Notes: a model not told the origin generated them from the letters alone. A stretch of 64,000 bases of DNA from Collinsella sp. (GCA_018363345.1 JAGZNZ010000002.1:13529-77528), one strand, 5' to 3'; counted from the first letter of the stretch, positions 16,087-38,548 are shown. Numbers and translations are program-made.

Positions 16087-18918
16087 CTACTCCCCCAGCA
16101 GGGCCTTCTCGGGCGTGATGGGCAGCGAGCGAACCTGGTGACCGGTGGCGTGCGCCACGGCCGAGGCAACGGCGGCGAGCGGCGTGTTGATGACGACCTC
16201 GCCGATCGACTTGGCGCCAAACGGACCCGTCGGCTCGTAGCTCGGCTCAAAGGCCACGCGAATGCTGCCGATATCCAGGCGCGTGGGCAGCTTGTAGCTC
16301 ATAAAGTTGCCGGTGCGCAGGCGACCGCGGTCGTCATGCTCGACGATCTCGTAGAGCGCGTGGCCGATGCCCTGGGCAATGCCGCCCTCGGCCTGGACGC
16401 GCGCGAGCGCCTCGTTGATCACGGTGCCGCAGTCCACGGCCGCCGCGTAATCCACCACAGTCACCTTGCCGGTGGCCTTGTCGACCTCGACCTCGGCAAT
16501 GCCGGCCATAAACGGTGGAGGCGAAACGGGCAGGCAGGCAGAGGCATGCGAGGTGAGCGCGTCGCCGCCCGCGATGTTCTTGACGCACAGGTTGGCAAAG
16601 TCGCGCAGCGTGAGGTAGCGGCCGCGCTCGCGGGCGGCGCGCTCGTCGGACAGACGCACGTACTGGCCATCGAAGACCACGTCGGTGGCGTCCACGTCCC
16701 ACATCTGGGCGGCCTTGGCGCAAATCCTCTCGCGCAGCTCGGTCGCGGCGTTCTTGGCAGCAAGGCCCGTCACATACGTGCCCGAGCTCGCATACGAGCC
16801 GGCGTCGAACGGCGACACGTCGGTGTCTACGCCGCGCACCACGATCTGCGAGCTCTCCACGCCCAGCTCCTCGGCGGCAATCTGCGCCAAGATCGTGTCG
16901 ACGCCCATGCCGTTATCGGTAGCGCCGGTGCCGATGGTAATGAAGCCGTCCTCTTCCAGGCGCATGTCGATACCGGCGATATCCACGTTGGAAATGCCCG
17001 AGCCCTGCATGGTGAGCGCGCAGCCCAGAGCACGCACGCGGTCGCCCAGGTCGACGGCCAGCGGCTTGTCGCGCCAACCGATCATGTCCATCGCGCGCAG
17101 CAGGCAGCGGTCGAGCGCGCAGGCGTTGAGCTTCTCGTTGTAGTACTGCGGCATGATCTCGCCCTCGCGCACGATGTTCTTAAGGCGCAGGTCGGCGGGG
17201 TCCATGTGCAGCATGTCGGCGAGCTCGTTGACGGCGCTCTCCACGGCAAACTGGCCCTGGGTGGCACCGTAGCCGCGATACGCGCCGCCGCGGTTGGTGT
17301 TGGTGTAGACGGCGTCCCAGCTAAAGCGGCTCGCCTTCACATGGTTGTAGATAGGCAGGCTCTTGTGGCCCGAAAGGCCGATCGTCGTGGTGGCGTGCTC
17401 GCCGTAAGCGCCGGCGTTGGACAACGTGTGCAGATCGATGGCCGTGATGGTGCCGTCGTTCATGGCGCCCAGCTTGACGGTCATCTGCATCTGGTGGCGC
17501 GAGTTGCCCGCGGTGATGGTCTCCTCGCGGGTGTAGCAGCAATAGCTCGGACGGCCGGTCTGCTGGGTCACAAACGCCACGAAGATCTCGCAGCAGCCCG
17601 TCTGCTTGGAGCCAAAGCCGCCACCAATGCGCGGCTTAATAACCTGCACCTGCGACTGCGGAATGTCGAGCGACTGCGCGACCATGCGGCGCACGTGGAA
17701 GGGCACCTGCGTGGAGGAGGTCACCGAGATGCGGCCGAACGCGTCGGTCGTCGCGAAGGCACGGAAGGTCTCCATGGGCGCGGTCTGCGTGGCCTGGCTG
17801 GTGTAGGTGCGCTCAAAGACGATGTCGCTCTGGGCGAAGGCCTCGTCCAGGTCGCCAAAATCGCTGGTACCGCTGCACACCAGGTTGCGCGGGACATCGC
17901 CGCCCTGCGGGAACATAAAGGTCACGTCGCCCTCGGGGTGGACCACGATGTCGTTATCGAGTGCCTTGGTAAAGTCGAGCAGCGGCTCGAGCACCTCGTA
18001 GTCGACCTTGATGAGCTTGAGTGCCTTGTCGGCGGCCTCCTCGGTTTCGGCGGCAACGATCGCCACCTCCTCGTTTTGGTAACGCACGAGGTTCTCGAGG
18101 ATCAGACGGTCGTAGGGACTCGGCTGCGGATAGCTCTGACCGGCGATGGTAAAGCGGCGCTTGGGCACGTCCTCGTAAGTGTAAACGCCCACGACGCCGG
18201 GCACCTTCAGGGCGCGCGACGTATCGATGGAGCGGATCTTGGCGCGGGCATAGGGGCTGCGCTTGAGTTTGACGATCAGGGCGCCGGCGGGCACCATATC
18301 GCCCGTGTAAACGGGACGGCCCTCGAGCAGCGCCTTCGAGTCCTTCTTGGGCTGCTTATGGGTGATCTGCTTGTACGAGACACCGTCGCAGCTGGTGTCG
18401 TTGACCGGCAGCTCGGGCATCTCAAAGCCCACCTGCACGCCGGACTCGTTGAGGAAGCGGACAATGGCGCGCAGCTGGCTCTCGTAGCCGCTGCAGCGGC
18501 AGAGGTTGCCGGCGAGCTGGCGCGAGAGCTCCTCGCGCGTGGCGACGAGCGTCGGGTCCTCCTTGGCGGCGCGGGCGAGCGCCAGCACGTTCATGATGAG
18601 GCCGGGAGCGCAAAAACCGCACTGCTCGGCGCCTTCGGCAGCCATTGCGCGGGCAAGCGCCTCGGACTCGGCCTTGAGGCCCTCGAGCGTGGTGATGGAG
18701 CGGCCCTCGACGCGCGCGGCGGGAACCGAGCAGCTCAGCACCGGGTCGCCGTCGAGCCACACCGTGCACAGGCCGCAGTTGGTGGTTTCGCAGGCACAGC
18801 GCACCGACGCGCAACCCTGCTCGCGCAGCAGCGCAAAGAGCATGGTATCGGGGGCAATCTGAACCTTGACCTTGCGGCCGTTGAGTGTAAAGGAAAGATC
18901 GATGAGTTTGGCAGCCAT
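16087..18918 (-). CDS. Xanthine-dehydrogenase-family molybdoenzyme with a fused N-terminal 2x[2Fe-2S] domain (aldehyde-oxidoreductase / MOP-like architecture, 943 aa).
   Basis: N-terminal ferredoxin-like CGLCTV and CGFCAPG...CRCSGY motifs. Large C-terminal molybdopterin-binding domain (GGGFGSK motif). Length and domain order match Desulfovibrio-type aldehyde oxidoreductase. Confidence 0.85.
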   Translation of the reverse strand: MAAKLIDLSFTLNGRKVKVQIAPDTMLFALLREQGCASVRCACETTNCGLCTVWLDGDPVLSCSVPAARVEGRSITTLEGLKAESEALARAMAAEGAEQCGFCAPGLIMNVLALARAAKEDPTLVATREELSRQLAGNLCRCSGYESQLRAIVRFLNESGVQVGFEMPELPVNDTSCDGVSYKQITHKQPKKDSKALLEGRPVYTGDMVPAGALIVKLKRSPYARAKIRSIDTSRALKVPGVVGVYTYEDVPKRRFTIAGQSYPQPSPYDRLILENLVRYQNEEVAIVAAETEEAADKALKLIKVDYEVLEPLLDFTKALDNDIVVHPEGDVTFMFPQGGDVPRNLVCSGTSDFGDLDEAFAQSDIVFERTYTSQATQTAPMETFRAFATTDAFGRISVTSSTQVPFHVRRMVAQSLDIPQSQVQVIKPRIGGGFGSKQTGCCEIFVAFVTQQTGRPSYCCYTREETITAGNSRHQMQMTVKLGAMNDGTITAIDLHTLSNAGAYGEHATTTIGLSGHKSLPIYNHVKASRFSWDAVYTNTNRGGAYRGYGATQGQFAVESAVNELADMLHMDPADLRLKNIVREGEIMPQYYNEKLNACALDRCLLRAMDMIGWRDKPLAVDLGDRVRALGCALTMQGSGISNVDIAGIDMRLEEDGFITIGTGATDNGMGVDTILAQIAAEELGVESSQIVVRGVDTDVSPFDAGSYASSGTYVTGLAAKNAATELRERICAKAAQMWDVDATDVVFDGQYVRLSDERAARERGRYLTLRDFANLCVKNIAGGDALTSHASACLPVSPPPFMAGIAEVEVDKATGKVTVVDYAAAVDCGTVINEALARVQAEGGIAQGIGHALYEIVEHDDRGRLRTGNFMSYKLPTRLDIGSIRVAFEPSYEPTGPFGAKSIGEVVINTPLAAVASAVAHATGHQVRSLPITPEKALLGE

Positions 18919-19832
18919 TAGCGCACCTCGCTAGAATCGACGCCGGGCACGCGGCGGCAGGAATACTCGTCCGTGGCGAACTTGGGGATCTGCACGCCCT
19001 CGAGCTCGCGGGCAAGCGCGGCAGAAAGCTCGATGCCGGCGGCACGGCGCACGGCCTGGATGGCGAGCGGGGCCGAGATGCGGCGGCGGTAGTCGGCCGA
19101 GCCCCACAGGTTGGTTCCGTAGCTCAGGGCACGCACGGATGCAGCAAGGGCGCGAAGCTCGTCCTCGGAAGGCTGCTCGTTGGTAAGGCCGCACGCCACG
19201 CCCTGCAGCTGGGTCGCGCGCAGCGGGCGGGCGCCCACGGTGACGTGCCAGGAGCCGTCCCACCAGGCGGCGGTGACGTTCAGCGAGGGGAAGTCGGTCG
19301 CGGCCTTGCGCACGGCCTCGTAACTCGCACGGTAATCGTGCTTGACGACCACGACGTGCTCGATCACGTCGCGCACGTAGCCCATGTCCACGAACTCGGC
19401 GAGCGGCACGCGACCGGCGCCCGTCAGCTCAACATAGGAATCGAGCGCGAGAAAAGCCGAAAGCACGTCCGAAAAACCAAAGCGGCCGTAGATGCTGCCG
19501 CCCACCGTGGCGGTATTGCGCAGCTGCACGCCCACGATATCGTGGACGGCGAACTCAAAGACGTGGTTGACAAGCGCGTTGAGCCCGGCATGGCGCTCGA
19601 GCTGGCGCAGGGTGCACATGGCACCGATGCGAAACTCGGTCTCGGTCTCCTCGATCTGATCGAGTCCGCAGGCCGAAAGGTCAATCGCCGTCGCCACACG
19701 ACGCGATCCCAGGCGCATCCAGATGCCGCCGCCCACAATCTTGTTGTTGCGGTTCTTCTGTAAGAGCTCATAGGCTTCGGCCGCGTTTCCAACACGGACG
19801 TAGGTACCGAACTTGAGCACGTTCTCCCCCAT
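18918..19832 (-). CDS. FAD-binding subunit (CoxM/XdhB-like) of the molybdenum hydroxylase.
   Basis: FAD-binding PCMH-type domain (GGGIWMRLG...ATVGGSIYG). Its stop overlaps the start of the Mo subunit by 1 nt. Confidence 0.8.
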   Translation of the reverse strand: MGENVLKFGTYVRVGNAAEAYELLQKNRNNKIVGGGIWMRLGSRRVATAIDLSACGLDQIEETETEFRIGAMCTLRQLERHAGLNALVNHVFEFAVHDIVGVQLRNTATVGGSIYGRFGFSDVLSAFLALDSYVELTGAGRVPLAEFVDMGYVRDVIEHVVVVKHDYRASYEAVRKAATDFPSLNVTAAWWDGSWHVTVGARPLRATQLQGVACGLTNEQPSEDELRALAASVRALSYGTNLWGSADYRRRISAPLAIQAVRRAAGIELSAALARELEGVQIPKFATDEYSCRRVPGVDSSEVR

Positions 19833-19927
19833 CTCTTCACTTGTCCAGTACCTTTAAGTGTACCAAACGAGGGGGCACAGCTCGTGTCGGGACAAAATGA
19901 ACCGTTTTCCTCCGTCGCATGCGGATC

Positions 19928-19958
19928 AAAAAAGCTCCCAGCCATGGTGACTGGGAGC
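19928..19958 (-). terminator. Intrinsic terminator of gdhA (stem GCTCCCAG/CTGGGAGC followed by a U6 run on the minus strand).
   Basis: Read directly; A6 run on the plus strand at 19928-19933. Confidence 0.6.
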
Positions 19959-19986
19959 CTTCTGCGATGCTATATCGAGCGAAGAT

Positions 19987-21342
19987 TTAGCAGACGCCCT
20001 GGGCGAGCATGGCATCGGCAACCTTCAGGAAGCCGGCAATGTTGGCGCCCATGACGAAGTTGCCCTCCTCGCCGTACTCCTTGGCGGTGTCGTCCACGTT
20101 GTGGAACATGCCGCGCATGAGCTGTTCGAGCTTGCCGTCGACCTCCTCGAAGGTCCAGGACAGGTGCTCGGCGTTCTGGCTCATCTCCAGGCCGGACACG
20201 AGCACGCCGCCGGCGTTGGCAGCCTTACCGGGCATAAAGGCGACGCCGTTCTCCTGGAAGTAGGTCGTGGCCTCGATGGTCGTGGGCATGTTCGCGCCCT
20301 CGCCGACCACCTTGCAGCCGTTGGCGACGAGCGCCTGGGCGTCCTCGAGCAGCAGCGTGTTCTCGCGAGCGCAGGGCAGCGCGATGTCGCAGGGAAGCTG
20401 CCACACGCCGCGGCCGTCTCCCTCGTGCCACACGGCATTGGGCTTCTCGTCAACATACATGGCGAGCGTAACGCCCTTGTCGTGGCCGGAGCGCTTCTTG
20501 TTGTAGACGTGCTCGAGCACGGTGTAGTCGATGCCGTCGGGATCCTCGACCCAACCGTGGGTGTCGGAGCAGGCCAGCACCTTGCCACCGAGCTGGGAGA
20601 CCTTCTGGACTGCGTAGATAGCGACGTTACCGGAGCCGTGAACGACGACGTTCTTGTCCTCGAAGGAGTCGCCGCGGCTCTTGAGGTACTCGTCCACAAA
20701 GTAGACCAAGCCGTAGCCGGTGGCCTCGGTACGGGCGAGCGAGCCGCCAAAGGAGAGGCCCTTGCCGGTAAGGACGCCGGTCCACTCGTTGGTCAGGCGC
20801 TTGTACTGACCGAACATGTAGGCAACCTCGCGGCCGCCAACGCCCAGGTCACCGGCGGGAACGTCGGTGTTGGGGCCAATGTGGCGATAGAGTTCGGTCA
20901 TGAAGGACTGGCAGAAGTGCATGATCTCGTTGTTGGACTTGCCCTTGGGGTCAAAGTCGGAGCCGCCCTTGCCGCCGCCCATGGGAAGGGTGGTCAGGCT
21001 GTTCTTGAGGATCTGCTCCAGGCCCAGGAATTTGAGCATGCCCAGGGTGACCGTCGGGTTAAAGCGCAGGCCGCCCTTGTAGGGTCCAATGGCAGAGTTG
21101 AACTCGACGCGGTAGCCGCGGTTGACCTGAACCTTGCCCTGGTCGTCGACCCAGGGAACACGGAACATGACGATGCGCTCGGGCTCGACGAGGCGCTCCA
21201 GTAGGGCGGCCTCCTCGTACTCGGGGTGGGCGTCGAGCGCCGGCTGGATGGTGCCGAGGATCTCGGTCGCGGCCTGGATGAACTCAGGCTGCTCGGGATA
21301 GCGGGCCTTGAGCTCGTCGAGAACTTTCTGCGTGTAGCTCAT
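19987..21342 (-). CDS. gdhA: NADP-specific glutamate dehydrogenase.
   Basis: GDH active-site Lys motif GGGKGGSDFDPKGKS and Rossmann motif GSGNVA; about 450 aa. Start at MSYTQKVLDELK. Confidence 0.9.
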   Translation of the reverse strand: MSYTQKVLDELKARYPEQPEFIQAATEILGTIQPALDAHPEYEEAALLERLVEPERIVMFRVPWVDDQGKVQVNRGYRVEFNSAIGPYKGGLRFNPTVTLGMLKFLGLEQILKNSLTTLPMGGGKGGSDFDPKGKSNNEIMHFCQSFMTELYRHIGPNTDVPAGDLGVGGREVAYMFGQYKRLTNEWTGVLTGKGLSFGGSLARTEATGYGLVYFVDEYLKSRGDSFEDKNVVVHGSGNVAIYAVQKVSQLGGKVLACSDTHGWVEDPDGIDYTVLEHVYNKKRSGHDKGVTLAMYVDEKPNAVWHEGDGRGVWQLPCDIALPCARENTLLLEDAQALVANGCKVVGEGANMPTTIEATTYFQENGVAFMPGKAANAGGVLVSGLEMSQNAEHLSWTFEEVDGKLEQLMRGMFHNVDDTAKEYGEEGNFVMGANIAGFLKVADAMLAQGVC

Positions 21343-21594
21343 GCTTCCTCCAATGATGGGAAACGAAAAATGTTGGTCGCGGCACCCCATGCGCCGCGAA
21401 CGTTATCGAGTATGGATAATATCGCACTGTTGCAGCAAAGTTTCGCATAAGCCGACGAGCGGATGTTTCGTTTTGATTACGATGCAGGTAGAAGCGTTTC
21501 TGAGCGCCCGACGTGCAAAACCCGTGTTTCAAACCTGTTTCGTCCACGTGTTCCAAACCACCACATTGGGGACAGCACCTTTGTGGTGTGGTAG

Positions 21595-21990
21595 TTAGAG
21601 GACGAGCTGATGGTAGTCGGCGGGGGTTATGCGGCCCTCGGTGGCAGCGCGAAAGGCGGCGAGCGCATCGCCCGAGAACGGCATGGCCCAGCACAGACCG
21701 CAGCCTGCGGTAATGGAGCCGGGCAAAGGCATAATGCGCCCGGGCACGCCGGCATCCAGGCACAGCTGCTCGCATTCCATCACATCGAACGTGCTGTCGA
21801 ACGATACGATGATCTTGCGTTCGTGGTCGAGGGCATCACCGGACGGGCCTTCGCGGTGTGCCTCACGATACGCCGCGGCGGTCGCTTCCTCTTCCGCGGT
21901 ATGCCCGCAGCCTCCGCAGCCGCAGGTACAGGGTTCGGACCCGTCGCAAGTGCAAGGTTCTCCCGTGTCGGGACAAATATCGTGAGACAT
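21595..21990 (-). CDS. DUF3343 (putative Se/S-carrier-like) protein with a Cys-rich N-terminal extension (CPDTGEPCTCDGSEPCTCGCGGCGH).
   Basis: The C-terminal 70 aa (IIVSFDSTFDVMECEQLCLDAGVPGRIMPLPGSITAGCGLCWAMP) resemble the DUF3343 fold and the paralogue at 48636..48887. ATG at 21990 has a GGGAG RBS. Confidence 0.65.
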   Translation of the reverse strand: MSHDICPDTGEPCTCDGSEPCTCGCGGCGHTAEEEATAAAYREAHREGPSGDALDHERKIIVSFDSTFDVMECEQLCLDAGVPGRIMPLPGSITAGCGLCWAMPFSGDALAAFRAATEGRITPADYHQLVL

Positions 21991-22005
21991 GGCAACTCCC
22001 ATCGT

Positions 22006-22638
22006 CTAGGCAAGCAGCTCGGCTGCCGCAAACTCTTCGGGTGTATTGACGTTTTCGAAGCAGAGCGTGGAGCCCGCGGCCTTAACGATCTGCGACTCAT
22101 CCATATAACCGGCCTGAACGCGATTGATCAGGCAGCGAATGCGCTGGCGGTCGCAGGCGAGCAGCTCTTGGGCAACCGGCGCGCACGCGTCACGGCGCCA
22201 GACGGCGCAAAGCGGCTCAATTCCCCGCTCCTCGCGCGGCACGCACACGTCAAGCGCCTCGGCCTCAACACGATCGGCAAGCGCGTCGATGAGTTCCGAC
22301 GAGACAAACGGCATGTCGCAGGCGACGATAGCCACGAGCGGCAATCGGGCCGCGGCCAACGAGCTCGCGATGCCGCGCATGGCGCCGGCGGGACCGTCGA
22401 CGTCCATGACTACGCGGGGGCGCAGGCCATCAAACATAAGCTTCTCAAGGTAGGCCAGCTCGCTGGGACGCGAAGTCGTCACGACCAACTCGCCGGCAAC
22501 TGGCGCCAGCCGACCCAGCACGCGCTCGATGAGCGGCTCGCCGCAAAACGCCATGCGCGCCTTATCGCAGCCCATGCGCGAGGACAGCCCGCCCGCCTGG
22601 ACGACACAAGAAAGATCGGCACGTCTTACGGTAGTCAT
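22006..22638 (-). CDS. Molybdenum cofactor nucleotidyltransferase (MobA/MocA family); MocA (cytidylyltransferase) is favoured by the XDH-family neighbour.
   Basis: N-terminal LSCVVQAGGLSSRMG nucleotide-binding motif and a mid-protein VACDMPFV motif. About 210 aa. Confidence 0.75.
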   Translation of the reverse strand: MTTVRRADLSCVVQAGGLSSRMGCDKARMAFCGEPLIERVLGRLAPVAGELVVTTSRPSELAYLEKLMFDGLRPRVVMDVDGPAGAMRGIASSLAAARLPLVAIVACDMPFVSSELIDALADRVEAEALDVCVPREERGIEPLCAVWRRDACAPVAQELLACDRQRIRCLINRVQAGYMDESQIVKAAGSTLCFENVNTPEEFAAAELLA

Positions 22639-22925: not shown

Positions 22926-24893
22926 CTAGCGCAGGGAGCGCAGGCCGCCGGCTTCCTTGTCGAGCACCGTAAAGCGCACGGCATCCAGGTGCTCCAAGAT
23001 GCTGATGGCACGCTTGCGCGACACACCCAGGGCTTCGCGCAACACACTCGTGGTGGCAGCGCCACCGGCTGCCTCAATGGCGGCGGCAACGAGCTCGCGC
23101 GCATGGGCCTCGGCGGCAGCGGACAGGGCAACGTCGCGCTCGACCTTCACGATGGAACGGTTGAGCGAAAGCTCGCGCAGGGCACGCGTCATGGTGTCGC
23201 GATCGAGCTGCAACTGCTCGCCCACCTCGGGCAACGTCGGCGCATCGAGGCCAGCTTCGTCCAGCAAGGAAACGATGCGCTCGCAAGCCTCTCGCACCAC
23301 GCGTGCCGCCGCGGTGGCCGAATGCGGATCGAATACCTCGGCGCCCTCGGCGGCGCACACGCCGCGCGAGCAGCCCTCGTAAATCAGGGCCGCGGCAACG
23401 CCTTCATCAGCGGCAGGCCACGCAGCATGGGCAACGGCGCCGGGCGTAAAGCCTGTCTCCTTGGGAGCCGCCGCGTGCATGGCTGACAGGGTCGCCGCCA
23501 GTGCATCCATCGCAGCGTCGAGCACCACGGCGTCCGCCAAGAGGTCCGCATCACCCACGGCAAGCTTGCGAACGGAGCCCTGCGCCACCAACCCGCGCAG
23601 TGCGGCATCGACCTCGCCGACACCAAGATCCAAAGCCTCGGCAACATCAACCGGCGTAACCGGCAGCGTCTGCAGCGCCAGCCAAGCGCCCACACCGCCC
23701 GCGATATCGCCGGACTCGAGTGCCGCAAACAGCGCGCGCTCGCCGGCCGAAAGCTCGCGCGAGCGACGGCAGCGCGATAGCAGCACGCGCCCGCCGCCGA
23801 TGAGCATCACGGGCGAATAGGACAGCACCACGGCATGGTCGCCGGCGCGCAGCGGCAGCGAGTTTTCCAAGCGCACCTGAACAATACGGGTCTCGCCCAC
23901 CGCCATGGGGGCCTCGCCCTCCATGAACATGATGCGACCGACAACCTCGGCCGTACCCGCCATCACATGCACGCGCGCGCCCGACTCGAGCACGCGCGGC
24001 TTGGCACCCTCGCGGCCCAGGTAAGTGAACACCATCATAAAGCGCATCGTCTGGCCAAAGCGACCCTGCACGCCGAGCATCTCTCCGCGATCGAGCGCGG
24101 CGACGGCATCGCCCACCAAGTTGAGCGCCACACGCTGACCGGGCAATGCCCGCGGCGTATCGCCATGCACCTGAATCCCGCGCACGCGACAGACCGTACG
24201 CGACGGCAGCGCGACGAGCTCATCGCCCACCGCAACCGGCGCATCGTGCAGCGTTCCCGTCACCACGGTACCGGCGCCCTTGATCGTAAAGCAGCGGTCG
24301 ATGGGCAGCCGCGGCGCGGCATCGGTGGTCTCGGCACGGGCACGGCAGGCATCCCAGCAAGCGGCAACCTGCTCGTCGAGTGCAGCAAGCAGGTCATCGA
24401 TCCCCGCGCCGGTCTTGGACGACACGGGCACGATCGACGCGTCGGCAAACACGGTATCCGAAAGAAAATCGTCCACGTCGAGCTCGGCCAGCTCAATCAT
24501 TTCGTTATCGGCCAGGTCGCACATCGTCAGCGCGACCACCATATGCGTAACGCCCAGCAGCTCCAGCACACGCACGTGCTCGCGGGTCTGCGGCATCACG
24601 CCCTCGACGGCCGAAACCACCAGCACGGCCACGTCGATACCCGTGGCGCCCTGCACCATGGCACGCAAGTAATGCGCATGGCCCGGCACGTCGACCAGGC
24701 CAACGATCTTGCCACTCGGCAGCGCCAGCTCACCAAAGCCAAGCTCAACGGTCATGCCGCGACGACGTTCAACTTCCAGGCGGTCGGGGTTTTTACCCGT
24801 CAGCGCCTCGATGAGCGCCGACTTACCGTGGTCAACGTGGCCCGCCGTGCCAACGATAACGGGACACTCCACCAGCGCCTGAACCTCACTCAT
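22926..24893 (-). CDS. selB: Selenocysteine-specific elongation factor SelB.
   Basis: N-terminal GTPase motifs (GHVDHGKS, DVPGH, the NKxD-equivalent LTMCDL), followed by about 400 aa of winged-helix domains; 655 aa. Its start overlaps the selA stop (ATGA). Confidence 0.9.
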   Translation of the reverse strand: MSEVQALVECPVIVGTAGHVDHGKSALIEALTGKNPDRLEVERRRGMTVELGFGELALPSGKIVGLVDVPGHAHYLRAMVQGATGIDVAVLVVSAVEGVMPQTREHVRVLELLGVTHMVVALTMCDLADNEMIELAELDVDDFLSDTVFADASIVPVSSKTGAGIDDLLAALDEQVAACWDACRARAETTDAAPRLPIDRCFTIKGAGTVVTGTLHDAPVAVGDELVALPSRTVCRVRGIQVHGDTPRALPGQRVALNLVGDAVAALDRGEMLGVQGRFGQTMRFMMVFTYLGREGAKPRVLESGARVHVMAGTAEVVGRIMFMEGEAPMAVGETRIVQVRLENSLPLRAGDHAVVLSYSPVMLIGGGRVLLSRCRRSRELSAGERALFAALESGDIAGGVGAWLALQTLPVTPVDVAEALDLGVGEVDAALRGLVAQGSVRKLAVGDADLLADAVVLDAAMDALAATLSAMHAAAPKETGFTPGAVAHAAWPAADEGVAAALIYEGCSRGVCAAEGAEVFDPHSATAAARVVREACERIVSLLDEAGLDAPTLPEVGEQLQLDRDTMTRALRELSLNRSIVKVERDVALSAAAEAHARELVAAAIEAAGGAATTSVLREALGVSRKRAISILEHLDAVRFTVLDKEAGGLRSLR

Positions 24894-26347
24894 CGAACAA
24901 TCGCCTTCTCAACGCACGCGACGAGCGTCGATGCCGCCGTCTCGATATCGCGGTCGCCCACGAGCGTGCGCACATCAAACAGAATGCGGTCGTGCGAGGC
25001 GCGCGTGACGACCGGCGTATCGGAGTCTTGAACGAGCGAGCGTTTGAGCGCGTCGACCGTCAGGCGCTCGTCAACAAGACACACGGCAACGCACATCGTG
25101 GGCAGCTCCACGGTAGGCAGCGAGCCGCCACCGGGGGTCGACGATTCCTCGACAATCTCCAACTCAACGGCACAAGGGCAACCGGCCTTATCGAGCCCGG
25201 CGACCATACGATCGCGAAGCTTGCGGGCACGTCGCTCCAAATGGGCCTGCGGCAGCGTAAGCATGCTGAGTACCGGAATATCGCGATGGGCAACATCGGC
25301 GCCGTCCATGTAGATACGCAGCGTGGCCTCGAGCGCCGACAGAGCCAGCTTGCCAGGACGCAGGGCACGCATAAGCGGATGCGACCCGCAGGCCTGGACC
25401 AGCTCGCGGCGGCCCATGATAATGCCCGCCTGTGCGGCACCGAGCAGCTTATCGCCCGAGCATGATACGATATCGAGCCCCGCCGCGACCGAAGCCGGCG
25501 TGGGCTCCTCACCGCCGCGCACCAGGATGTCGTCGGGCAACAGCGCGCCCGAGCCCTGGTCCTCGTAGAACAGCAGACCATGCTTGTGGGCCAGGGCGGC
25601 AAGCTCCCGAGAGCCCACCTCCTCGTGAAAGCCCTCGATGCGATAGTTGGAAGGATGGACCTTGAGGATCATGGCCGTATCGGGCGTGATGGCGCGCTCG
25701 TAGTCCGACAGGTGCGTGCGGTTGGTGGCCCCGACCTCGACGAGTTTGGCGCCCGAAGCCGCCATGACATCGGGGATGCGGAAGCTGCCGCCGATCTCGA
25801 CAAGCTCGCCGCGACTGACGATGACCTCCCTGCCTGCGGCATGGGTCGCCAGCACCAGCAGCACAGCGGCGGCGTTGTTATTAACGACCAGCGCGTCCTC
25901 GGCACCGGTAAGCGAGCGGATCAGCTGCGCGGCATGTTCCTTGCGCGACCCACGCGAGCAGGTGTCCACACTGTACTCGAGCGTGCTGTACCCACGCGCG
26001 ACCTCGGCCACGGCCTTTGCCGCCGACTCCGCGAGCGGGGCGCGACCCAAGTTGGTATGGATGACCACACCCGTGGCGTTGACGGCAGGACGCAGGCTCG
26101 GCAGTGCGGATCGATGCGCACGCCACTCGATGGCCGAGGCCATGTCGCGCTTAGAGCGCGGGGCGGCACCGGCGCGAATGGCGGCGCGCTCCTCGTCGAG
26201 CTCGGCCGTCACGGCAACATGCACCACCGCGTCGCAGGTCTCCCCCGCCGCCTTCACAACCGGCCACTCTGCGAGCATCTCGTTGACGGAAGGAATAGCG
26301 CGAAGGCGGGCGCGTACCTCATCGGACATGTTCTGGCTATCGCTCAT
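24890..26347 (-). CDS. selA: L-seryl-tRNA(Sec) selenium transferase SelA.
   Basis: PLP-fold enzyme with the characteristic SelA N-terminal segment. 485 aa, coupled to selB. Confidence 0.9.
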   Translation of the reverse strand: MSDSQNMSDEVRARLRAIPSVNEMLAEWPVVKAAGETCDAVVHVAVTAELDEERAAIRAGAAPRSKRDMASAIEWRAHRSALPSLRPAVNATGVVIHTNLGRAPLAESAAKAVAEVARGYSTLEYSVDTCSRGSRKEHAAQLIRSLTGAEDALVVNNNAAAVLLVLATHAAGREVIVSRGELVEIGGSFRIPDVMAASGAKLVEVGATNRTHLSDYERAITPDTAMILKVHPSNYRIEGFHEEVGSRELAALAHKHGLLFYEDQGSGALLPDDILVRGGEEPTPASVAAGLDIVSCSGDKLLGAAQAGIIMGRRELVQACGSHPLMRALRPGKLALSALEATLRIYMDGADVAHRDIPVLSMLTLPQAHLERRARKLRDRMVAGLDKAGCPCAVELEIVEESSTPGGGSLPTVELPTMCVAVCLVDERLTVDALKRSLVQDSDTPVVTRASHDRILFDVRTLVGDRDIETAASTLVACVEKAIVR

Positions 26348-26423: not shown

Positions 26424-28541
26424 TCAATCACTATTATCCTCGCGCGCCGCGACCTTTTCCACGCGAACGGCGTTTTCCTGGGTGAGCGCGGCGCCCGTCA
26501 ACGGGTCCCAACGCAAAGGTGTATGGTCGAGTGGGCCGACGCCCAAGGCTTGAACGCCGCCGGCATCAGCGCCAAACGAACGTCCGCCGGGGGCGGCCGA
26601 GGTGAAGATGCACGCCGGATGCAGATACGGCGTCGTCTCCACGCGCACGCGGTCGCGGCCCATATCACTCGCGAGTTCGACGATCTCGCCGTCGGCGATG
26701 CCCATGTGCGCAGCAGCATCGGCATTCATCTGCACGGCATCCAGGTCCGATCCAGCCTCGGCGGCACCTTGGGCCGCAAGCCTGCGCGAGGTGTGCGACT
26801 CAAAGGGACGGTTGCCGCTAATGAGGCGAAACATCCCCAGACCCGGCTCCACCATGGGGGCGATCCAGTTGGGTACACGACCCAGGCCGGCTCGTTCCCA
26901 TACGTCGCTTGCCAGCGCAATTTTGCCGCCATCCAAGGGAATCGCCGGCTCGCCCGTACGCGACGGCAACGCAACGCCCGTGTCGGCCCAGCCGCGCTCC
27001 TTGAGCTCGTCCAGATTGATCCCAAAAGGCGCCACCTGGGCAGCCGCCAGATCGTCAGACGTAAACTGGAAGTACTCGCCCACGCCACACGCCTGCGCCA
27101 GACCGGTAAAAATCTCCCGACCGGGACGCGTGTCGTCATGCTGCACGGGCAACACGGCATTGCGGTAGAACAGGCGCGCGTCGTTGCGGCCCACGACCGT
27201 ACCCACGCCGCGGTCGGCCTCCAGATACGTCACGTCGGGCAGCACGAAGTCAGAAGCACGCGCCGTCTCGGACCAGCGAATATCAATCGTCACGAGCAGG
27301 TCAAGTTGTTCCAGAATCGATAGCCACGCCCCGGCGTTACCATAGCCCGCACCGGGGTTACTGGCATAGACGATGAGCCCGCGCAAATCGCCGGCAAGAA
27401 TCGACTGACCGATGGTCGTACACAGGCCGCGCACCGAATCGACCAGTGGATAGCGCTCGGACCCCAACTTAGGCTCACGCGGCACCGACGGCATCGCGAA
27501 GCGCGCAGGGTCCAAGTCGCCCAGCGCAAGCGGCGTGGGCGGATTGAGCGCGCCGCCCGCATGTCCAATACAGCCCAGCAGCACATCGACCAAACAAATC
27601 GCGCGCGCAGTCTGGGTGCTGTTGGCATACGCAATGCCAATGCCGCCATGAAAGCCGGCGTCCACCACGGCAGCGGGCGCGGCGGCAGCTAGATCGCGCG
27701 CCGTGGCGGCGATCTCTGCGGCCGGCACGTCGCACATCGACTCGGCCCACTCGGGCGTCCAAGCACGGGCCGCCTGCACCAGCTCGTCAAAACCCGTGGT
27801 ATAGCGGGTCACGAACTCGTGATCATACAGGTCCTCGGCAATCAACACATGTGCGATACCCAGCAGCAAGGCCAGGTCGCAGCCCGGGCGCACGCGCAGC
27901 CAGCGGTCGGCAATAGCAGCTGAACCGCTGCGCCGGGGGTCGACCACGATAATCTTCGCCCCACGGCGACGGGCATCGTTGAGCGCATCAACGGCACTCA
28001 TCGTCGACGAATCCACCAGCGAACGCCCGAGGTACATGATGCAATCGGTATGCGCCAGGTCGGAGGCGGGGCTATAGCCCAGGCTGTGTTCCCAACCGGT
28101 AAGTCGGCTTACCTCGCAGGCACCGTCAGCTCCGTACACGTTGGGCGAACCAAGCGCATGCATAAAGCGATACGCCCAGTAACGGTCGAACGAGGGCACG
28201 CCGAGCGTCATGCCCAGCGCACGGGGCCCGCGTTCGTCAACAATCCCCAAAAGACGCTCGGCAATCTGGGCAAACGCCTCGTCCCAGGTAATCGCATCGA
28301 ACCCCGAGCCATCAGCTCGTCGGCGCATGGGGTGCACAATGCGATCGTGCTCGTCAAACGGCATGTCCAGGCGATGGCGCCCGCGGGCGCACAGGGCACG
28401 CGCCGCGCACGGATGCCCCGGCACCGGCAACTCGGCCACCACGCGACCGTCCTCAACGCGTGCCGCAAAGGCGCAATCGGCATAGCATCCCCCGCATGTG
28501 GTCACCACGGCGCGACCGTCACGCTTCACAGCAGATGCCAT
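26424..28541 (-). CDS. Cytoplasmic molybdopterin (bis-MGD, DMSO-reductase-family) oxidoreductase of unknown substrate.
   Basis: N-terminal CGGCYADC...CAARALC Fe-S motif and no twin-arginine signal; about 705 aa with MopB-like organisation. Start at MASAVKRDG. Confidence 0.8.
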   Translation of the reverse strand: MASAVKRDGRAVVTTCGGCYADCAFAARVEDGRVVAELPVPGHPCAARALCARGRHRLDMPFDEHDRIVHPMRRRADGSGFDAITWDEAFAQIAERLLGIVDERGPRALGMTLGVPSFDRYWAYRFMHALGSPNVYGADGACEVSRLTGWEHSLGYSPASDLAHTDCIMYLGRSLVDSSTMSAVDALNDARRRGAKIIVVDPRRSGSAAIADRWLRVRPGCDLALLLGIAHVLIAEDLYDHEFVTRYTTGFDELVQAARAWTPEWAESMCDVPAAEIAATARDLAAAAPAAVVDAGFHGGIGIAYANSTQTARAICLVDVLLGCIGHAGGALNPPTPLALGDLDPARFAMPSVPREPKLGSERYPLVDSVRGLCTTIGQSILAGDLRGLIVYASNPGAGYGNAGAWLSILEQLDLLVTIDIRWSETARASDFVLPDVTYLEADRGVGTVVGRNDARLFYRNAVLPVQHDDTRPGREIFTGLAQACGVGEYFQFTSDDLAAAQVAPFGINLDELKERGWADTGVALPSRTGEPAIPLDGGKIALASDVWERAGLGRVPNWIAPMVEPGLGMFRLISGNRPFESHTSRRLAAQGAAEAGSDLDAVQMNADAAAHMGIADGEIVELASDMGRDRVRVETTPYLHPACIFTSAAPGGRSFGADAGGVQALGVGPLDHTPLRWDPLTGAALTQENAVRVEKVAAREDNSD

Positions 28542-28604
28542 CTCGATTACCCCTTTCATCAGCCAAACACAACAGGCCAAAAGCCCGGCAACGGGCCCCA
28601 GGCC

Positions 28605-28663: not shown

Positions 28664-29503
28664 TTACGCCTCGGACTTCTTGGCGTAGATAAACCAGTAG
28701 CCGAGCGCGACCAGAACCGCACCGCCCACGATGTTGCCCAGCGTGGCGGCGGTCAGGTTAAACGCAATGCCCGCGGCGTTGAGTGCATCGGCGCCGACGA
28801 CGTCGGCACCGTAGCCGCACGCGTGCATCACGGCCCCCATGGGCAAAAAGTACATGTTGGCGACGCAGTGCTCAAAACCGCAGGCCACAAAGGCGGCGAT
28901 GGGCAGCAGAATGCCCACAACCTTATCGACCACGGTCTTGCCGGCGGTACCGATCCACACGGCCAGGCACACAAAGATGTTGCACAGGATACCGCGGAAG
29001 AAGATCGTCACCCAGTCGATCGTCACCTTGCCGGCGGCGACGCTCACCATGGAATTGGCAACCGCCTCGCCGTTAAGCTTATAGATGCCGGCCATGTACA
29101 CCAAAAAGACGATGAACAGGGCACCGACAAAATTGCCGACCCACACGACGACCCAGGCCTTGAGCATCTGAGCCAGGGTGATCTTTTTGCTCTTGAGCGC
29201 ACAGACCATAAGCGAATTGCCGGTAAACAGCTCGGCGCCGCACACCAGTACCAGCACCAGGCCCAGGCAAAAGCACAGGCCGCCCACGACGCGCTGAGCA
29301 CCCCAGCCCAGCGTGTTGTCGCTCAAAAACACCGTAAAGAACAGACCGCCGAAGGCAATGAACGCACCGGCGAACATTGCCAACAGAAAGGCCTTAGCGA
29401 CCGGCAGGTTAGCCTTGGTCACGCCGGCGGCCTCGGTCTTGGCCTCGATCGCGGCGGGCGCCAGGCAATCGGGAGCGGGATACTCCACCTTGGAATCTGC
29501 CAT
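28664..29503 (-). CDS. focA: Formate/nitrite transporter family channel (FocA/FocB-like).
   Basis: Six TM segments. FNT-family features such as CGFEHCVANM and the conserved His region. Adjacent to the FHL operon, as for E. coli focB next to hyf. Confidence 0.85.
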   Translation of the reverse strand: MADSKVEYPAPDCLAPAAIEAKTEAAGVTKANLPVAKAFLLAMFAGAFIAFGGLFFTVFLSDNTLGWGAQRVVGGLCFCLGLVLVLVCGAELFTGNSLMVCALKSKKITLAQMLKAWVVVWVGNFVGALFIVFLVYMAGIYKLNGEAVANSMVSVAAGKVTIDWVTIFFRGILCNIFVCLAVWIGTAGKTVVDKVVGILLPIAAFVACGFEHCVANMYFLPMGAVMHACGYGADVVGADALNAAGIAFNLTAATLGNIVGGAVLVALGYWFIYAKKSEA

Positions 29504-29542
29504 GTCAATCACTTCTTTCCTAACAAAATGGAACAAGTGCTC

Positions 29543-30046
29543 CTACTGCTCTTGCCCCAAGCGGACAAAGTGGGAAAAGTCGTTGGCGGCCACGGCGTCG
29601 TACACGGCGTCGACGGCGTCAAAGACTTCCGGGGACATGGGGTTGTAGAACTCCGTGTCGCCCGGCTGAATCCCGACGAAGACGATATCATCGCACGATT
29701 GCTCAATCTCTTCGATCAGAATCGACAAAGGAAGCGAATGCGTGGTGAACATCGACTTGCGGGCCACATCGCACTTGTCGAGCAAACGGATGGACCCAAC
29801 GGGCAGCGCCATGTCGGCGGCATCGACCAAGACCAGACGCGGCGGACGCTCGCGCTTGACCTCGATGATGTCATCCTCGGGCGTTTGGCCGCCGTCGATG
29901 GTGTACCAACCGGCGATGGGCGCGTCCTCCATCTTTTTGGAGAGCACGGGGCCGGCGGCATCGTCGGCACGCAGCACGCTTCCCGCCGTGAGCACGATGC
30001 CCGCAAACGGGGCGCCGTTCACACGTCCATCCACAACGCAACCCAT
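29543..30046 (-). CDS. hycI: Hydrogenase-3-type maturation endopeptidase HycI.
   Basis: Start MGCVVDGR with a GGGAGG RBS. Similar to HycI/HybD proteases with the conserved Asp residues (VLRADDAAGP). Confidence 0.8.
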   Translation of the reverse strand: MGCVVDGRVNGAPFAGIVLTAGSVLRADDAAGPVLSKKMEDAPIAGWYTIDGGQTPEDDIIEVKRERPPRLVLVDAADMALPVGSIRLLDKCDVARKSMFTTHSLPLSILIEEIEQSCDDIVFVGIQPGDTEFYNPMSPEVFDAVDAVYDAVAANDFSHFVRLGQEQ

Positions 30047-30627
30047 TACTGCAACCTCCCCGTCAGATACACGCCCGACACATCGCGCACGCGCTCCACC
30101 AGATCGCGAAACTTCATTAAAAACGCGACCTGCTGGGCATGCAGGCCAAAGTCGTCGTCGAACACCGAGATGCCGGCCTTGGCCGACCCGCGAAAACCGC
30201 GCTCGTCGAGCAACGCATCGCAGGCCTCGAGCAGCGACGGCACCGCCGCCTTGTCGAGCTGGCACTCGCCAAAGGAGCGGATGGCCTCGAACTTGGTCTT
30301 GGCCTCCCCCTCCGGCAGCGCGTCGATAAGCGCATAGAACACATCCACCGGCACCGACAGGCGCGGCTCAAAGCAGTCGAGCACGCCGGTGTGGTGGCCC
30401 ACGGCGAGCGTGTAGTAAAGCACGTCGCAGGCCTCCTGGGGAACGTCTTCCTCGGTCTCCACAAACTTACGCGTGAGCTCGTAAAAGACCACCTGGTCGG
30501 GCGCATGGCCCAGGGAGGGGTCGACGACGCCCTCGGCGGCCTCGTCGCTTGCGCGCGAGGCATCGCCAAAGGAGCCGCCGAGCATACCGGGGCCCGCAAA
30601 GTAACCAGAGCGGTCCGTGAGTTCCAT
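30046..30627 (-). CDS. hycH: Formate hydrogenlyase maturation protein HycH/HyfJ (longer than the E. coli proteins).
   Basis: Position between hyfI/hycG and hycI and weak HycH-like similarity. 193 aa versus about 137 in E. coli. Confidence 0.65.
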   Translation of the reverse strand: MELTDRSGYFAGPGMLGGSFGDASRASDEAAEGVVDPSLGHAPDQVVFYELTRKFVETEEDVPQEACDVLYYTLAVGHHTGVLDCFEPRLSVPVDVFYALIDALPEGEAKTKFEAIRSFGECQLDKAAVPSLLEACDALLDERGFRGSAKAGISVFDDDFGLHAQQVAFLMKFRDLVERVRDVSGVYLTGRLQ

Positions 30628-31410
30628 CTAGCGACCTCCGGCCAGCACCAGATCCTGCAGCGCCGAGTACACCTCGACGCGGCGCGGATCGTCCTGCTTG
30701 TCGATGAGCAGCGCCATGGCACCGCGGATATCGCCCTTGGGCGCGCCCTCGAGCGTATCCATAAACTCGTTAGCCAGGTCGCGGCCATAACGGTAGCCGC
30801 TCATGGCGCGAGCCTCGCGCTCGATGGCAACGCGCAGCTTGTACGGCACGCCGGGGTGCAGGATATCGGCCTGCTCGCCGGCGGCCTCCACCGTGGTCTC
30901 GGCATGGAGCTTTTGGTCCAGCAGACCAAGCGCCATGGCAAAGCCGTAGATGGTCTGCGCGGGGCTGGGCGGGCAGCCGGGGATGTAGACATCGACCGGC
31001 AGAATCTTGTCCGTGCCGCCCCAGACGCAGTAGTTGTCGTAGAAGATGCCGCCGGTGCAGCCGCACGCACCATAGGACACCACAATCTTGGGATCGGGTG
31101 CGGCCTCAAAGGCGCGCAGGGCCGGCATGCGCATGGCACGTGTCACGGCACCGGTGTACAGCAGCACGTCGGCGTGGCGGGGCGAGGGCACGACCTTGAT
31201 GCCAAAGCGCTCGACGTCAAAGACGGGCGTGATGGAACCGAAGATCTCGATCTCGCAGCCGTTGCAGCCGCCGCAGTCGACACGGTAGACGTACACCGAG
31301 CGCTTGATCTTCTTAAGAAGGGTCGCCTTGGCCTTCTCGATGCTCTCGTCGAGCTCGATCTTGGTCGGGCGGTACTGAAGCCGCTCGGGCAAAAGCGTGG
31401 GTTCGGCCAT
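30628..31410 (-). CDS. hyfI: [NiFe] hydrogenase small subunit of FHL (HycG/HyfI, NuoB-like).
   Basis: CxxC motifs (DCGGCNGCE...GACGCTGG...GCPP) for the proximal [4Fe-4S] cluster. Confidence 0.9.
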   Translation of the reverse strand: MAEPTLLPERLQYRPTKIELDESIEKAKATLLKKIKRSVYVYRVDCGGCNGCEIEIFGSITPVFDVERFGIKVVPSPRHADVLLYTGAVTRAMRMPALRAFEAAPDPKIVVSYGACGCTGGIFYDNYCVWGGTDKILPVDVYIPGCPPSPAQTIYGFAMALGLLDQKLHAETTVEAAGEQADILHPGVPYKLRVAIEREARAMSGYRYGRDLANEFMDTLEGAPKGDIRGAMALLIDKQDDPRRVEVYSALQDLVLAGGR

Positions 31411-31412
31411 GG

Positions 31413-32129
31413 TTACTCCTCCTTCGTATCAAAATCCATGATGATGCCCTCGACCGGTGCAGGACCGGCGGGAATCTCGGGCGCATCGGGGTTGAGCTCG
31501 CGGTCGACATACTCCGGGTTCACGCCGTGGCCGCCCAGATACTCCATGCCGGGGCCCTGGGGCTCACCGGACGCAAGCGTCTCGTTGGCAGCCATGCCGC
31601 GCGCGTTGCCGGTCTTGACGGCCGAGGCGGCGCGCAGGGCGTCGAGCTCGCGCTTGCACTCCTGGCACATGCCGACGGTACGGGCGGCCTGCTCGGCCTC
31701 CATGCCGCCGGCCTTTTGCAGCAGGCGCTTGGCGTAGTCGATCTCCTTGTGCGGGGCAAACGGCTTGCCGCAACGCGAGCAGTGCTCGAGCGTATAGACG
31801 CTCTTACTGGTGAGATCGTCCTTGCTCATAACAGCCAGCTCAAACTCCTCGGTGAGCTTGATGGCCTCCATGGGGCAGGCCTCCTCGCAGCGGCCGCAAA
31901 AGATGCAGCGACCGTAGTCGATCGACCAGGTGATGGTATCGGCCGCAAGGTCGGTGTCCATGCGAATGGCATCGGCCGGGCACGCCACGCCGCAGGCACC
32001 GCAGGCGATGCAGAGCTCCGCGTTGTGCTCGGGCTTGCCGCGCATATCCTTGTTGGTGGGAAACGGCGCAAACGGGTACTTGACCGTCGCGTCGCCGGCC
32101 TTGGCGTTAACCTTCCAAAGCTTCAGCAT
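31413..32129 (-). CDS. hyfH: FHL 2x[4Fe-4S] ferredoxin subunit (HycF/HyfH, NuoI-like) with a ~60-aa acidic/Pro-rich C-terminal extension.
   Basis: Two CxxCxxCxxxCP motifs (CIACGACGVACP, CIFCGRCEEACP). 238 aa versus about 180 for E. coli HycF/HyfH. Confidence 0.85.
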   Translation of the reverse strand: MLKLWKVNAKAGDATVKYPFAPFPTNKDMRGKPEHNAELCIACGACGVACPADAIRMDTDLAADTITWSIDYGRCIFCGRCEEACPMEAIKLTEEFELAVMSKDDLTSKSVYTLEHCSRCGKPFAPHKEIDYAKRLLQKAGGMEAEQAARTVGMCQECKRELDALRAASAVKTGNARGMAANETLASGEPQGPGMEYLGGHGVNPEYVDRELNPDAPEIPAGPAPVEGIIMDFDTKEE

Positions 32130-32130
32130 A

Positions 32131-33903: not shown

Positions 33904-33906
33904 TCG

Positions 33907-35466: not shown

Positions 35467-35469
35467 GGA

Positions 35470-36123
35470 CTACCCCCTCAGCTCGGACAGGTCGCGCGCA
35501 TCGAGCGAGTGGGAGTCGTCCCAAATGCGACGCACGACGATGGACATGATGATGACGGCAAAGATGGCGTCGGTGGCGATGCCGATCTCGATGATCTCGG
35601 GAGCGGTGGGGGCCAAAAGCGCGAGCGTCACATGGCTGCCGTTTTCCATAAGGCAGTATCCAAAGATCTGCTTCATGATGTTGCGCTGCGAAATGATGCA
35701 GGTGAGGCCCACAAAGAAGTGAGCGAAGCTAATAGCGAGCGCAGGCGTTGCGACCTCGGCCGTGGGCAGGCTGATCTGCGTCACGACGGCAAAGCAGATC
35801 GCGACCTCCACAGCGATGATGCAAATGGCCCACGCGGGCTTAAGGCCGGCCTTGAGCGATGCGTCGCTCGGCTCACCCATCTTCTTGTATGCGCGGTTGA
35901 GGATATAAGGGACCAGGACGACCTTGGTGATAAAAGCGGATCCTGCCCACATGAGCAGCTCCTGCGCACCGGTGGTGACACCGAGCGTGGCGAGTAGTCC
36001 CACGAGCACCAGCGACTGAACCGCATACCAACTGATGGCATGTTTGATGTTCTTGGAGACAACCACCATGGTGGACGTGACGATCAGAAGGCCGCCAAGG
36101 ATGTTGACGATCGAATAACCCAT
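35470..36123 (-). CDS. hyfE: Small membrane subunit HyfE (NuoK-like).
   Basis: 217-aa polytopic membrane protein at the hyfE position. Confidence 0.75.
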   Translation of the reverse strand: MGYSIVNILGGLLIVTSTMVVVSKNIKHAISWYAVQSLVLVGLLATLGVTTGAQELLMWAGSAFITKVVLVPYILNRAYKKMGEPSDASLKAGLKPAWAICIIAVEVAICFAVVTQISLPTAEVATPALAISFAHFFVGLTCIISQRNIMKQIFGYCLMENGSHVTLALLAPTAPEIIEIGIATDAIFAVIIMSIVVRRIWDDSHSLDARDLSELRG

Positions 36124-36136
36124 GTCGTTCTACCTC

Positions 36137-37594: not shown

Positions 37595-37609
37595 TGTTTC
37601 TCCCTTCTC

Positions 37610-38536: not shown

Positions 38537-38548
38537 GCTCTCCCCTCC

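Follow-up and report, generated by a model that had tools for sequence, protein, structure and literature searches.

A Collinsella xanthine dehydrogenase-family enzyme as a candidate selenium-dependent purine or urate oxidoreductase

The nicotinate dehydrogenase of Eubacterium barkeri (PDB 3HRD) carries a terminal Mo=Se ligand. Markers of selenium-dependent molybdenum hydroxylases (SDMHs) were named by Haft and Self, namely, TIGR03309 (YqeB), TIGR03172 (YqeC), and TIGR03310 (YgfJ/MocA), and the same authors assigned the families of YedF-like and EF2568 proteins to steps that precede selenophosphate synthesis (PMC2276186). DUF3343 and YedF were linked generally to SelD by Lin et al., who described no selenium-specific DUF3343 subfamily (PMC5322559). 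Johnstone and Self reported that growth of Clostridioides difficile on xanthine and urate needs yqeB (PMC11448449), and Liu et al. showed that the xanthine dehydrogenase (XDH) and the DOPDH of Clostridium sporogenes need SelD and found no active-site sequence signature of selenium use (10.1101/2025.04.24.650524). In Escherichia coli, XdhD-YgfM carries out the NADH-dependent reduction of urate to 2,8-dioxopurine (PMC12507026). Here we analyze an XDH-family enzyme that is encoded, together with its FAD subunit, in a 64,000-nucleotide (nt) stretch of Collinsella sp. DNA (GCA_018363345.1 JAGZNZ010000002.1:13529-77528; termed the window herein). The original prediction, made from the sequence alone, had joined these two genes with a Cys-rich DUF3343 gene and a MocA-like gene into one candidate module for a selenium-dependent hydroxylase, next to selC-selB-selA. 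Our analysis makes it plausible that the enzyme is a selenium-dependent oxidoreductase of purines or urate, a candidacy that derives from the gene neighborhoods of its relatives and not from the local gene neighborhood.

The FAD-XDH gene pair and its closest known counterparts

The enzyme is encoded by two adjacent genes:

16087-18918, minus strand: molybdenum (Mo) subunit of the xanthine oxidase family, 943 amino acids (aa), with 2x[2Fe-2S] fused to the molybdopterin-binding region (Fer2/Fer2_2, Ald_Xan_dh_C, MoCoBD_1/2)
18918-19832, minus strand: YgfM/XdhB-like FAD subunit, 304 aa (FAD_binding_5, PF00941, 81 bits)

All Pfam matches of the two subunits exceed the gathering scores, and the domain set (2x[2Fe-2S], a/b hammerhead, MoCoBD_1/2, and a FAD_binding_5 partner) and the motifs bear out the predicted identity of the pair at 16087-19832. 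Its domains, its catalytic Glu, and its FAD partner place it in the xanthine oxidase/molybdenum hydroxylase superfamily. The active-site motifs GGGFGSKQ, RGYG, and SIGE are present in the Mo subunit; on the basis of the bovine XDH motifs, we take the substrate-binding Arg of RGYG to be the equivalent of Arg880 and the SIGE Glu to be the catalytic one. The FAD stop codon shares 1 nt with the Mo start, and the pair thus forms a translationally coupled operon of its own. The FAD-then-Mo order is kept in all relatives examined, with the iron-sulfur (Fe-S) gene placed in between in three-gene forms. The dN/dS of the Mo subunit gene is 0.16 (relative to the 89% identical ortholog in locus L009), and the gene is therefore functional and under purifying selection. 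A public protein from a Collinsella sp. metagenome-assembled genome (MAG), MBS4778933.1, is exactly identical to the Mo subunit.

The scores of the enzyme were as follows, with the two XdhA models scoring best among the NCBIfam models:

XdhA, NF043082: 607 bits (cutoff, 780)
XdhA, PRK09970: 573 bits (cutoff, 916)
XdhD type, TIGR03313: 534 bits (cutoff, 1102)
4-Hydroxybenzoyl-CoA reductase (4-HBCR), TIGR03194: 467 bits (cutoff, 995)
MOP, NF045668: 407 bits (cutoff, 1100)
DOPDH/Se_dep_XDH, TIGR03311: 377 bits (cutoff, 830)
YgfM-XdhD, TIGR03312: 48 bits (cutoff, 241)

The Mo subunit is 35% identical to E. coli XdhD over the full length and 34% identical to E. coli XdhA. In a neighbor-joining tree, the Coriobacteriia Mo sequences form one clade that adjoins E. 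coli XdhD and stands apart from the XdhA clade and the DOPDH-type enzymes. The original prediction had proposed to set the Mo subunit against MOP-type aldehyde oxidoreductases by phylogeny; the tree puts its clade nearest to E. coli XdhD, and NF045668, at 407 versus 1100 bits, sets the enzyme apart from MOP. The Collinsella enzyme is not of the MOP type, and its architecture matches that of E. coli YgfM-XdhD.

The likeness to YgfM-XdhD lies in a FAD gene followed by a gene with N-terminal 2x[2Fe-2S] fused to the Mo domain, in its position as the nearest reference sequence in the tree, and in a YqeB/YqeC/purine gene context in E. coli, as is found for the Collinsella relatives. The Collinsella enzyme fails the TIGR03313 and TIGR03312 cutoffs, however, so that only architecture and gene order match, and its RGYG motif carries an Arg at the position of a Gln in XdhD. 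XdhABC-type xanthine dehydrogenases (E. coli XdhA and C. sporogenes XDH) share the FAD subunit and the GGGFGxKQ, RGYG, and xGE motifs, but their Fe-S domain is a separate subunit, they fall into a separate tree clade, and the cutoffs of their models are not reached. The DOPDH/XdhAC enzymes (TIGR03311) likewise have Fe-S and Mo domains in one polypeptide and, in L023 and L078, two Oscillospiraceae loci, adjoin YqeB and YqeC; they differ in having no FAD subunit, in an identity of ∼28% to the Collinsella enzyme, and in the missed TIGR03311 cutoff. The E. barkeri nicotinate dehydrogenase belongs to the same superfamily (its L, M, and S subunits match at 159, 113, and 87 bits), but it has four separate subunits and another substrate, and the similarity is distant. 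The best matches among PDB sequences are 4-HBCR alpha (316 bits) and the Desulfovibrio gigas MOP (1VLB/1SIJ; 291 bits). The latter has a fused Fe-S/Mo chain that aligns end to end, but it has no FAD subunit, its NF045668 cutoff is missed, and the context of the Collinsella relatives is purine catabolism and not aldehyde metabolism.

Gene neighborhoods of the relatives

Relatives of the enzyme with 63 to 79% identity (the Coriobacteriia clade; other Collinsella and other Coriobacteriaceae), as well as one with 50% identity in L040, directly adjoin YqeB/YqeC; most also adjoin XdhC and MocA, and some SelD. Some adjoin the uric acid genes ygeX, ygeY, ygeW, and hyuA and the gene for carbamate kinase. 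These arrangements include the following:

L007 and L008: YgeY-YgeW-carbamate kinase-MocA-HyuA-YqeC-YqeB-XdhC-FAD-XDH
L011 and L014 (Collinsella spp.): MocA-YqeC-YedF-NifS-DUF3343-YqeB-SelD-XdhC-FAD-XDH
L015 and L052: a YqeB cluster, then gdhA-FAD-FeS-Mo
L040 (Phascolarctobacterium): a fused XDH (50% identity) with its FAD subunit, beside NifS-DUF3343-YqeC-YqeB
Collinsella ihumii, syntenic locus: focA-YedF-NifS-DUF3343-SelD-gdhA-...-FAD-FeS-Mo-tig-clpP-clpX-valS, with the YqeB island on a separate contig

The island markers reach 350 bits for YqeB (TIGR03309; cutoff, 220) and 155 bits for YqeC (TIGR03172; cutoff, 73), and in L007 and L008 YqeB, YqeC, YgeW, HyuA, and carbamate kinase all exceed the NCBIfam cutoffs. 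At greater phylogenetic depth, the enzymes of the clade are repeatedly found beside selenium genes, in varied arrangements. Because the relatives are embedded in SDMH islands, selenium dependence is a reasonable hypothesis for the Collinsella enzyme; the original prediction of an SDMH candidate thus stands on the relatives' YqeB/YqeC islands, while its argument from the local neighborhood does not hold.

At the genome level, Peng et al. scored Collinsella aerofaciens ATCC 25986, as well as Collinsella sp. CAG:166, as SelD+ SelA+ SelB+ YqeB+ YqeC+ (PMC5029168 Table S1), and Liu et al. listed C. aerofaciens ATCC 25986 among the strains with uric acid genes, all of which have YqeBC and SelD (10.1101/2025.04.24.650524). 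Uric acid use differs among closely related Collinsella (10.1101/2022.07.24.501321).

The window-type gene order is kept in at least eight independent Collinsella contigs (L009, L092, and L095 to L100), and gdhA is a conserved neighbor of XDH across Collinsella and other Coriobacteriaceae (L005, L009, L015, L052, and L107). Directly upstream of FAD-XDH, two small Cupin_2 genes are found in the related lineages L009 (8312-8989), L107 (5427-6157), and L108 (118-934) and are missing in the window. In the C. ihumii locus (L005, 9437-12430), the Fe-S and Mo genes are separate but lie in the same reading frame, parted only by a TAG codon, where the window has one fused open reading frame (ORF), a difference suggestive of a recent fusion or fission event in this clade.

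The selenium and molybdenum genes of the window

The genes between the FAD-XDH pair and the formate hydrogenlyase locus are as follows:

19928-19959, minus strand: intrinsic gdhA terminator, consisting of a GC-rich hairpin and a UUUUUU tract after it (−28.4 kcal/mol; z, −5.45)
19987-21342, minus strand: gdhA, NADP-specific glutamate dehydrogenase, monocistronic (NF006929, 717 bits; cutoff, 536)
21595-21990, minus strand: DUF3343/Se_S_carrier, 131 aa (PF11823)
22006-22638/22662, minus strand: MobA-like molybdenum cofactor guanylyltransferase, NTP_transf_3, 210 to 218 aa
22793-22889, minus strand: tRNA-Sec (selC; ARAGORN; Rfam RF01852, 64.6 bits)
22926-24893, minus strand: selB (TIGR00475, 286 bits; cutoff, 242)
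24890-26347, minus strand: selA (TIGR00474, 516 bits; cutoff, 268)
26424-28559, minus strand: PhsA-like bis-MGD (molybdopterin guanine dinucleotide) oxidoreductase between focA and selA (303 bits; PhsA cutoff, 694)

As predicted, gdhA is interposed between FAD-XDH and the DUF3343 gene. It starts 252 nt past the DUF3343 stop, after an AT-rich intergenic region, and probably has its own promoter region; the distance from gdhA to the FAD gene is 154 nt in the window. The gdhA terminator was missed by a consensus terminator scan and was found by reading and folding the sequence (0 of 200 shuffles were equally stable). This strong terminator is predicted to separate FAD-XDH from the genes upstream, and with the promoter region and terminator of gdhA the pair would therefore lie two transcription units away from DUF3343.

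The Cys-rich DUF3343 near selC-selB-selA was confirmed at 21595-21990. With mobA, which ends 15 nt before it, it makes up a bicistronic unit outside the XDH operon, and it has an N-terminal extension of ∼55 residues with eight conserved Cys (CPDTGExCTCDGxEPCTCG..GCGCGH), which matched no Pfam family. The extension is kept in homologs (P0349 to P0414) down to 56% identity; the sole source-named match among the 77 found in the homolog search is a Collinsella MAG. The neighboring nucleotidyltransferase, taken for MocA-like in the original prediction, turned out to resemble MobA: MobA models score 102 to 125 bits and MocA TIGR03310 only 38.6 (cutoff, 186), BLASTP matched the full length of the protein to E. 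coli MobA (29% identity; E value, 1.7e-11) and gave no match to E. coli MocA, and an identical public protein bears the name molybdenum cofactor guanylyltransferase. As a MobA-like protein, it is predicted to provide MGD to enzymes of the bis-MGD kind, FdhH and the PhsA-like oxidoreductase among them. Bacterial XDH-family enzymes typically use molybdopterin cytosine dinucleotide, not MGD.

Further upstream, the window contains the following genes for selenium and molybdenum use:

28664-44199, minus strand: focA and the formate hydrogenlyase locus (hycI, hycH, hycG, HycE-like subunit, membrane subunits, and ferredoxins)
41256-43586, minus strand: FdhH, a selenocysteine (Sec) protein (CART-U-HGP, in-frame UGA)
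47500-48654, minus strand: EF2568-family cysteine desulfurase/Sec lyase (TIGR01977, 411 bits; cutoff, 377)
48636-48902, minus strand: second DUF3343
48907-49536, minus strand: YedF (TIGR03527, 213 bits; cutoff, 110)
49595-50635, minus strand: selD, Sec containing (SG-U-AAKL, in-frame UGA; TIGR00476, 335 bits; cutoff, 125)
55717-59180, minus strand: modABC-like molybdate transporter (modA TIGR01256, 140 bits; cutoff, 62.5)
59869-61146, minus strand: moeA

FdhH and SelD are the two selenoproteins of the window, in agreement with the two counted for C. aerofaciens ATCC 25986 (PMC5029168 supplementary file 3). Together, FdhH, which requires Sec and bis-MGD, and SelD are sufficient clients to account for selABCD, mobA, modABC, and moeA, of which modABC and moeA are general Mo cofactor supply genes. 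The predicted clustering of a second DUF3343, YedF, and a cysteine desulfurase-like gene with selD was found at 47500-50635. The original prediction had read such accessory genes as a sign of a labile selenium ligand; DUF3343, YedF, and the EF2568-type desulfurase are, however, associated with SelD in general, would act ahead of selenophosphate synthesis, and are not specific to SDMHs (PMC2276186, PMC5322559).

Locus L107, from a sister Collinsella lineage whose XDH (83% identical) belongs to the window subclade, contains, in this order, tRNA-Gly/Pro, the ORFs found at 44.5 to 45.2 kb in the window, focA, gdhA, a transporter, two cupin genes, FAD-XDH, and tig. It has neither the formate hydrogenlyase block nor the PhsA-like-selA-selB-selC-mobA-DUF3343 block, but XDH is retained; both blocks therefore travel together, independently of XDH. 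The adjacency of selABC/mobA/DUF3343 to XDH is dispensable, and together with the gdhA terminator this counts against one module of DUF3343, transferase, sel genes, and XDH. The DUF3343-mobA-selC-selB-selA block is predicted to go with the formate hydrogenlyase locus and not with XDH maturation. The PhsA-like gene is present in all window-type contigs and missing from L107; no twin-arginine motif was seen at the N terminus of its product.

The window has a GC content of ∼62%, and all genes named in the original prediction were recovered, each on the minus strand and in or close to its predicted position. In the direction of transcription, the minus-strand order is as follows:

61.1-55.7 kb: modABC-like transporter and moeA; 55.3-50.6 kb: two double-cubane-cluster reductases, activase, and glycosyltransferase
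then selD, YedF, DUF3343, EF2568-family Sec lyase/desulfurase, branched-chain amino acid transporter, tRNA-Pro, and tRNA-Gly
then the formate hydrogenlyase locus (44.2-29.5 kb), focA, PhsA-like bis-MGD enzyme, selA, selB, and tRNA-Sec
then the NTP transferase, DUF3343, gdhA, FAD subunit, fused Fe-S/Mo subunit, tRNA-Leu, tig, clpP, clpX, and valS

The same 64 kb thus gathers genes for three Mo enzymes, for the uptake of Mo and the assembly of its cofactor, and for the activation of selenium. The genes adjoining selD (50637-55285, minus strand) encode two paralogous double-cubane-cluster anaerobic reductases (NF040772, ∼493 bits; cutoff, 350), an ATP-dependent activase, and a GT4 glycosyltransferase; an association of double-cubane-cluster reductase and selD is listed also for Slackia heliotrinireducens (PMC5322559 Table 1).

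Selenium dependence weighed against the alternatives

We consider it probable that the Collinsella enzyme acts on the purine side and uses selenium if yqeB is present, with the sel/mobA block serving FdhH. Electrons would pass between the Mo-pterin site, the two [2Fe-2S] clusters, and FAD. Judging from the relatives' neighborhoods, the enzyme would most likely act on xanthine, hypoxanthine, or urate in anaerobic purine degradation, and a labile selenium ligand would be most likely when the genome has yqeB. The sel block, the selD-YedF-DUF3343-Sec lyase genes, modABC, and moeA would supply Sec and bis-MGD to FdhH, and the DUF3343-mobA-selC-selB-selA block would be gained or lost jointly with formate hydrogenlyase.

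Several observations weigh against selenium dependence or the purine assignment. None of YqeB, YqeC, XdhC, and MocA was found in the 64 kb by tblastn with Collinsella and E. coli queries or by Pfam. The enzyme falls under every NCBIfam equivalog cutoff, and a bootstrap value of just 56% (neighbor joining, 50 replicates) backs the sister grouping of the window and island subclades. The 10-residue insertion of XdhD that bears Glu606 is not in the Collinsella enzyme, and no purine or Mo cofactor riboswitch was found, the Rfam matches being tRNAs only. No selenium genes lie near the 60% identical relatives in Olsenella and Thermophilibacter, and Peng et al. scored Olsenella uli DSM 7084, along with six further Collinsella, negative for SelD, SelA, SelB, YqeB, and YqeC (PMC5029168). 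Because of these relatives and the SelD-negative O. uli, the XDH clade may not be uniformly selenium dependent. In Thermophilibacter and Olsenella (L001, 6020-9998; L003, 6100-10007), FAD-XDH is divergent from an energy-coupling factor transporter (S component, CbiQ, and two ATPases). This arrangement hints at another heterocyclic substrate, perhaps a vitamin-like one, for the subclade, whose AGAYGEH motif also has Tyr for Glu.

The further purine genes YgeW, YgeX, YgeY, YgfK, SsnA, HyuA, and carbamate kinase also gave no tblastn match in the window, and Pfam scans of selected ORFs across it, which left out some membrane-subunit ORFs of the formate hydrogenlyase locus, contained no XdhC_CoxI or YqeC domain. 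Neither yqeB nor yqeC lies in the SelD module at 47500-50635, and no YqeC accompanies the hydroxylase, whose neighboring transferase is MobA in place of MocA/YgfJ. The selD gene is present, but the Sec trait also needs it, and it does not discriminate. A GTDB scan with a Collinsella YqeB listed five Collinsella among 80 loci; ATCC 25986, for which YqeB is reported, is not among the matches listed, so absence from them is uninformative.

Other clues were dropped. Substrate assignment through Glu606, the proposed specificity residue of XdhD, was abandoned since the residue sits in the missing insertion; substrate and regiochemistry are therefore not assignable from sequence. The riboswitch search, as a substrate clue, gave nothing besides tRNAs. 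P0195 was rejected as a C. aerofaciens-type YqeB: its contig has 41.7% GC (versus ∼62%) and so is not from Collinsella, and its genes have repeated segments resembling assembly artifacts. Cluster size as a proxy for YqeB frequency (50,017 members in the XDH cluster versus at most 126 for Collinsella-type YqeB clusters) was discarded because the XDH cluster also holds the FAD subunit and same-locus controls vary (MobA, 254; ClpP, 803; DUF3343, 8,333).

A selenium-independent enzyme, in which XDH parted from or lost a YqeB/YqeC island and carries the ordinary sulfido ligand of most xanthine oxidase family enzymes, with the proximity of the sel genes as a relic of rearrangement, is possible though rather unlikely. 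Such an enzyme would fit the lack of an SDMH-specific marker within the window, the persistence of XDH without adjacent sel genes in L107, the Olsenella and Thermophilibacter loci without nearby selenium genes together with the SelD-negative O. uli DSM 7084, and the variable uric acid use among close Collinsella (10.1101/2022.07.24.501321). The closest relatives beyond the window subclade sit in SDMH islands, however, and the sole two Sec-positive Collinsella of the 2016 survey are also YqeB+ YqeC+ (PMC5029168). A sulfido enzyme, moreover, usually needs an XdhC-type chaperone and MocA, which are likewise missing from the window; the absence of markers from 64 kb therefore says little. Direct maturation of XDH by the Cys-rich DUF3343, the nucleotidyltransferase, and the sel genes, without YqeB/YqeC, is very unlikely: these genes are close and on the same strand, their order is kept in many Collinsella contigs, and the Cys-rich DUF3343 variant is lineage specific and conserved, but the transferase is MobA and not MocA, gdhA with its own terminator stands between the two units, the block is missing where formate hydrogenlyase is missing while XDH persists, and FdhH (Sec and bis-MGD) is a sufficient client. 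We would scarcely expect most window-type genomes to be without yqeB/yqeC and their XDH still to be selenium dependent, through YqeB-free delivery by the Cys-rich DUF3343 (with the nucleotidyltransferase by selC) and the SelD-YedF-DUF3343-Sec lyase module. Least credible to us is an aldehyde oxidoreductase of the MOP type or a different hydroxylase that does not act on purines (e.g., of the 4-HBCR or nicotinate dehydrogenase type): the fused Fe-S/Mo architecture resembles MOP and the top PDB matches are 4-HBCR alpha and MOP, but there is a dedicated FAD subunit, which MOP does not have, NF045668 and TIGR03194 stay at 407 versus 1100 and 467 versus 995 bits while the XdhA and XdhD models reach 534 to 607, and purine pathway genes neighbor the relatives.

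The locus shows that the proximity of Sec genes, DUF3343, or YedF is by itself no evidence for a selenium cofactor trait; YqeB, YqeC, XdhC, and MocA discriminate. The Coriobacteriia clade, with its YgfM-XdhD architecture, its scores below all curated cutoffs, and its link to YqeB/YqeC, is a candidate for the uncharacterized purine-side Mo enzyme in these bacteria. Collinsella are among the commonest human gut actinobacteria, and when gut bacteria degrade purines and urate anaerobically, the urate levels of the host are affected.

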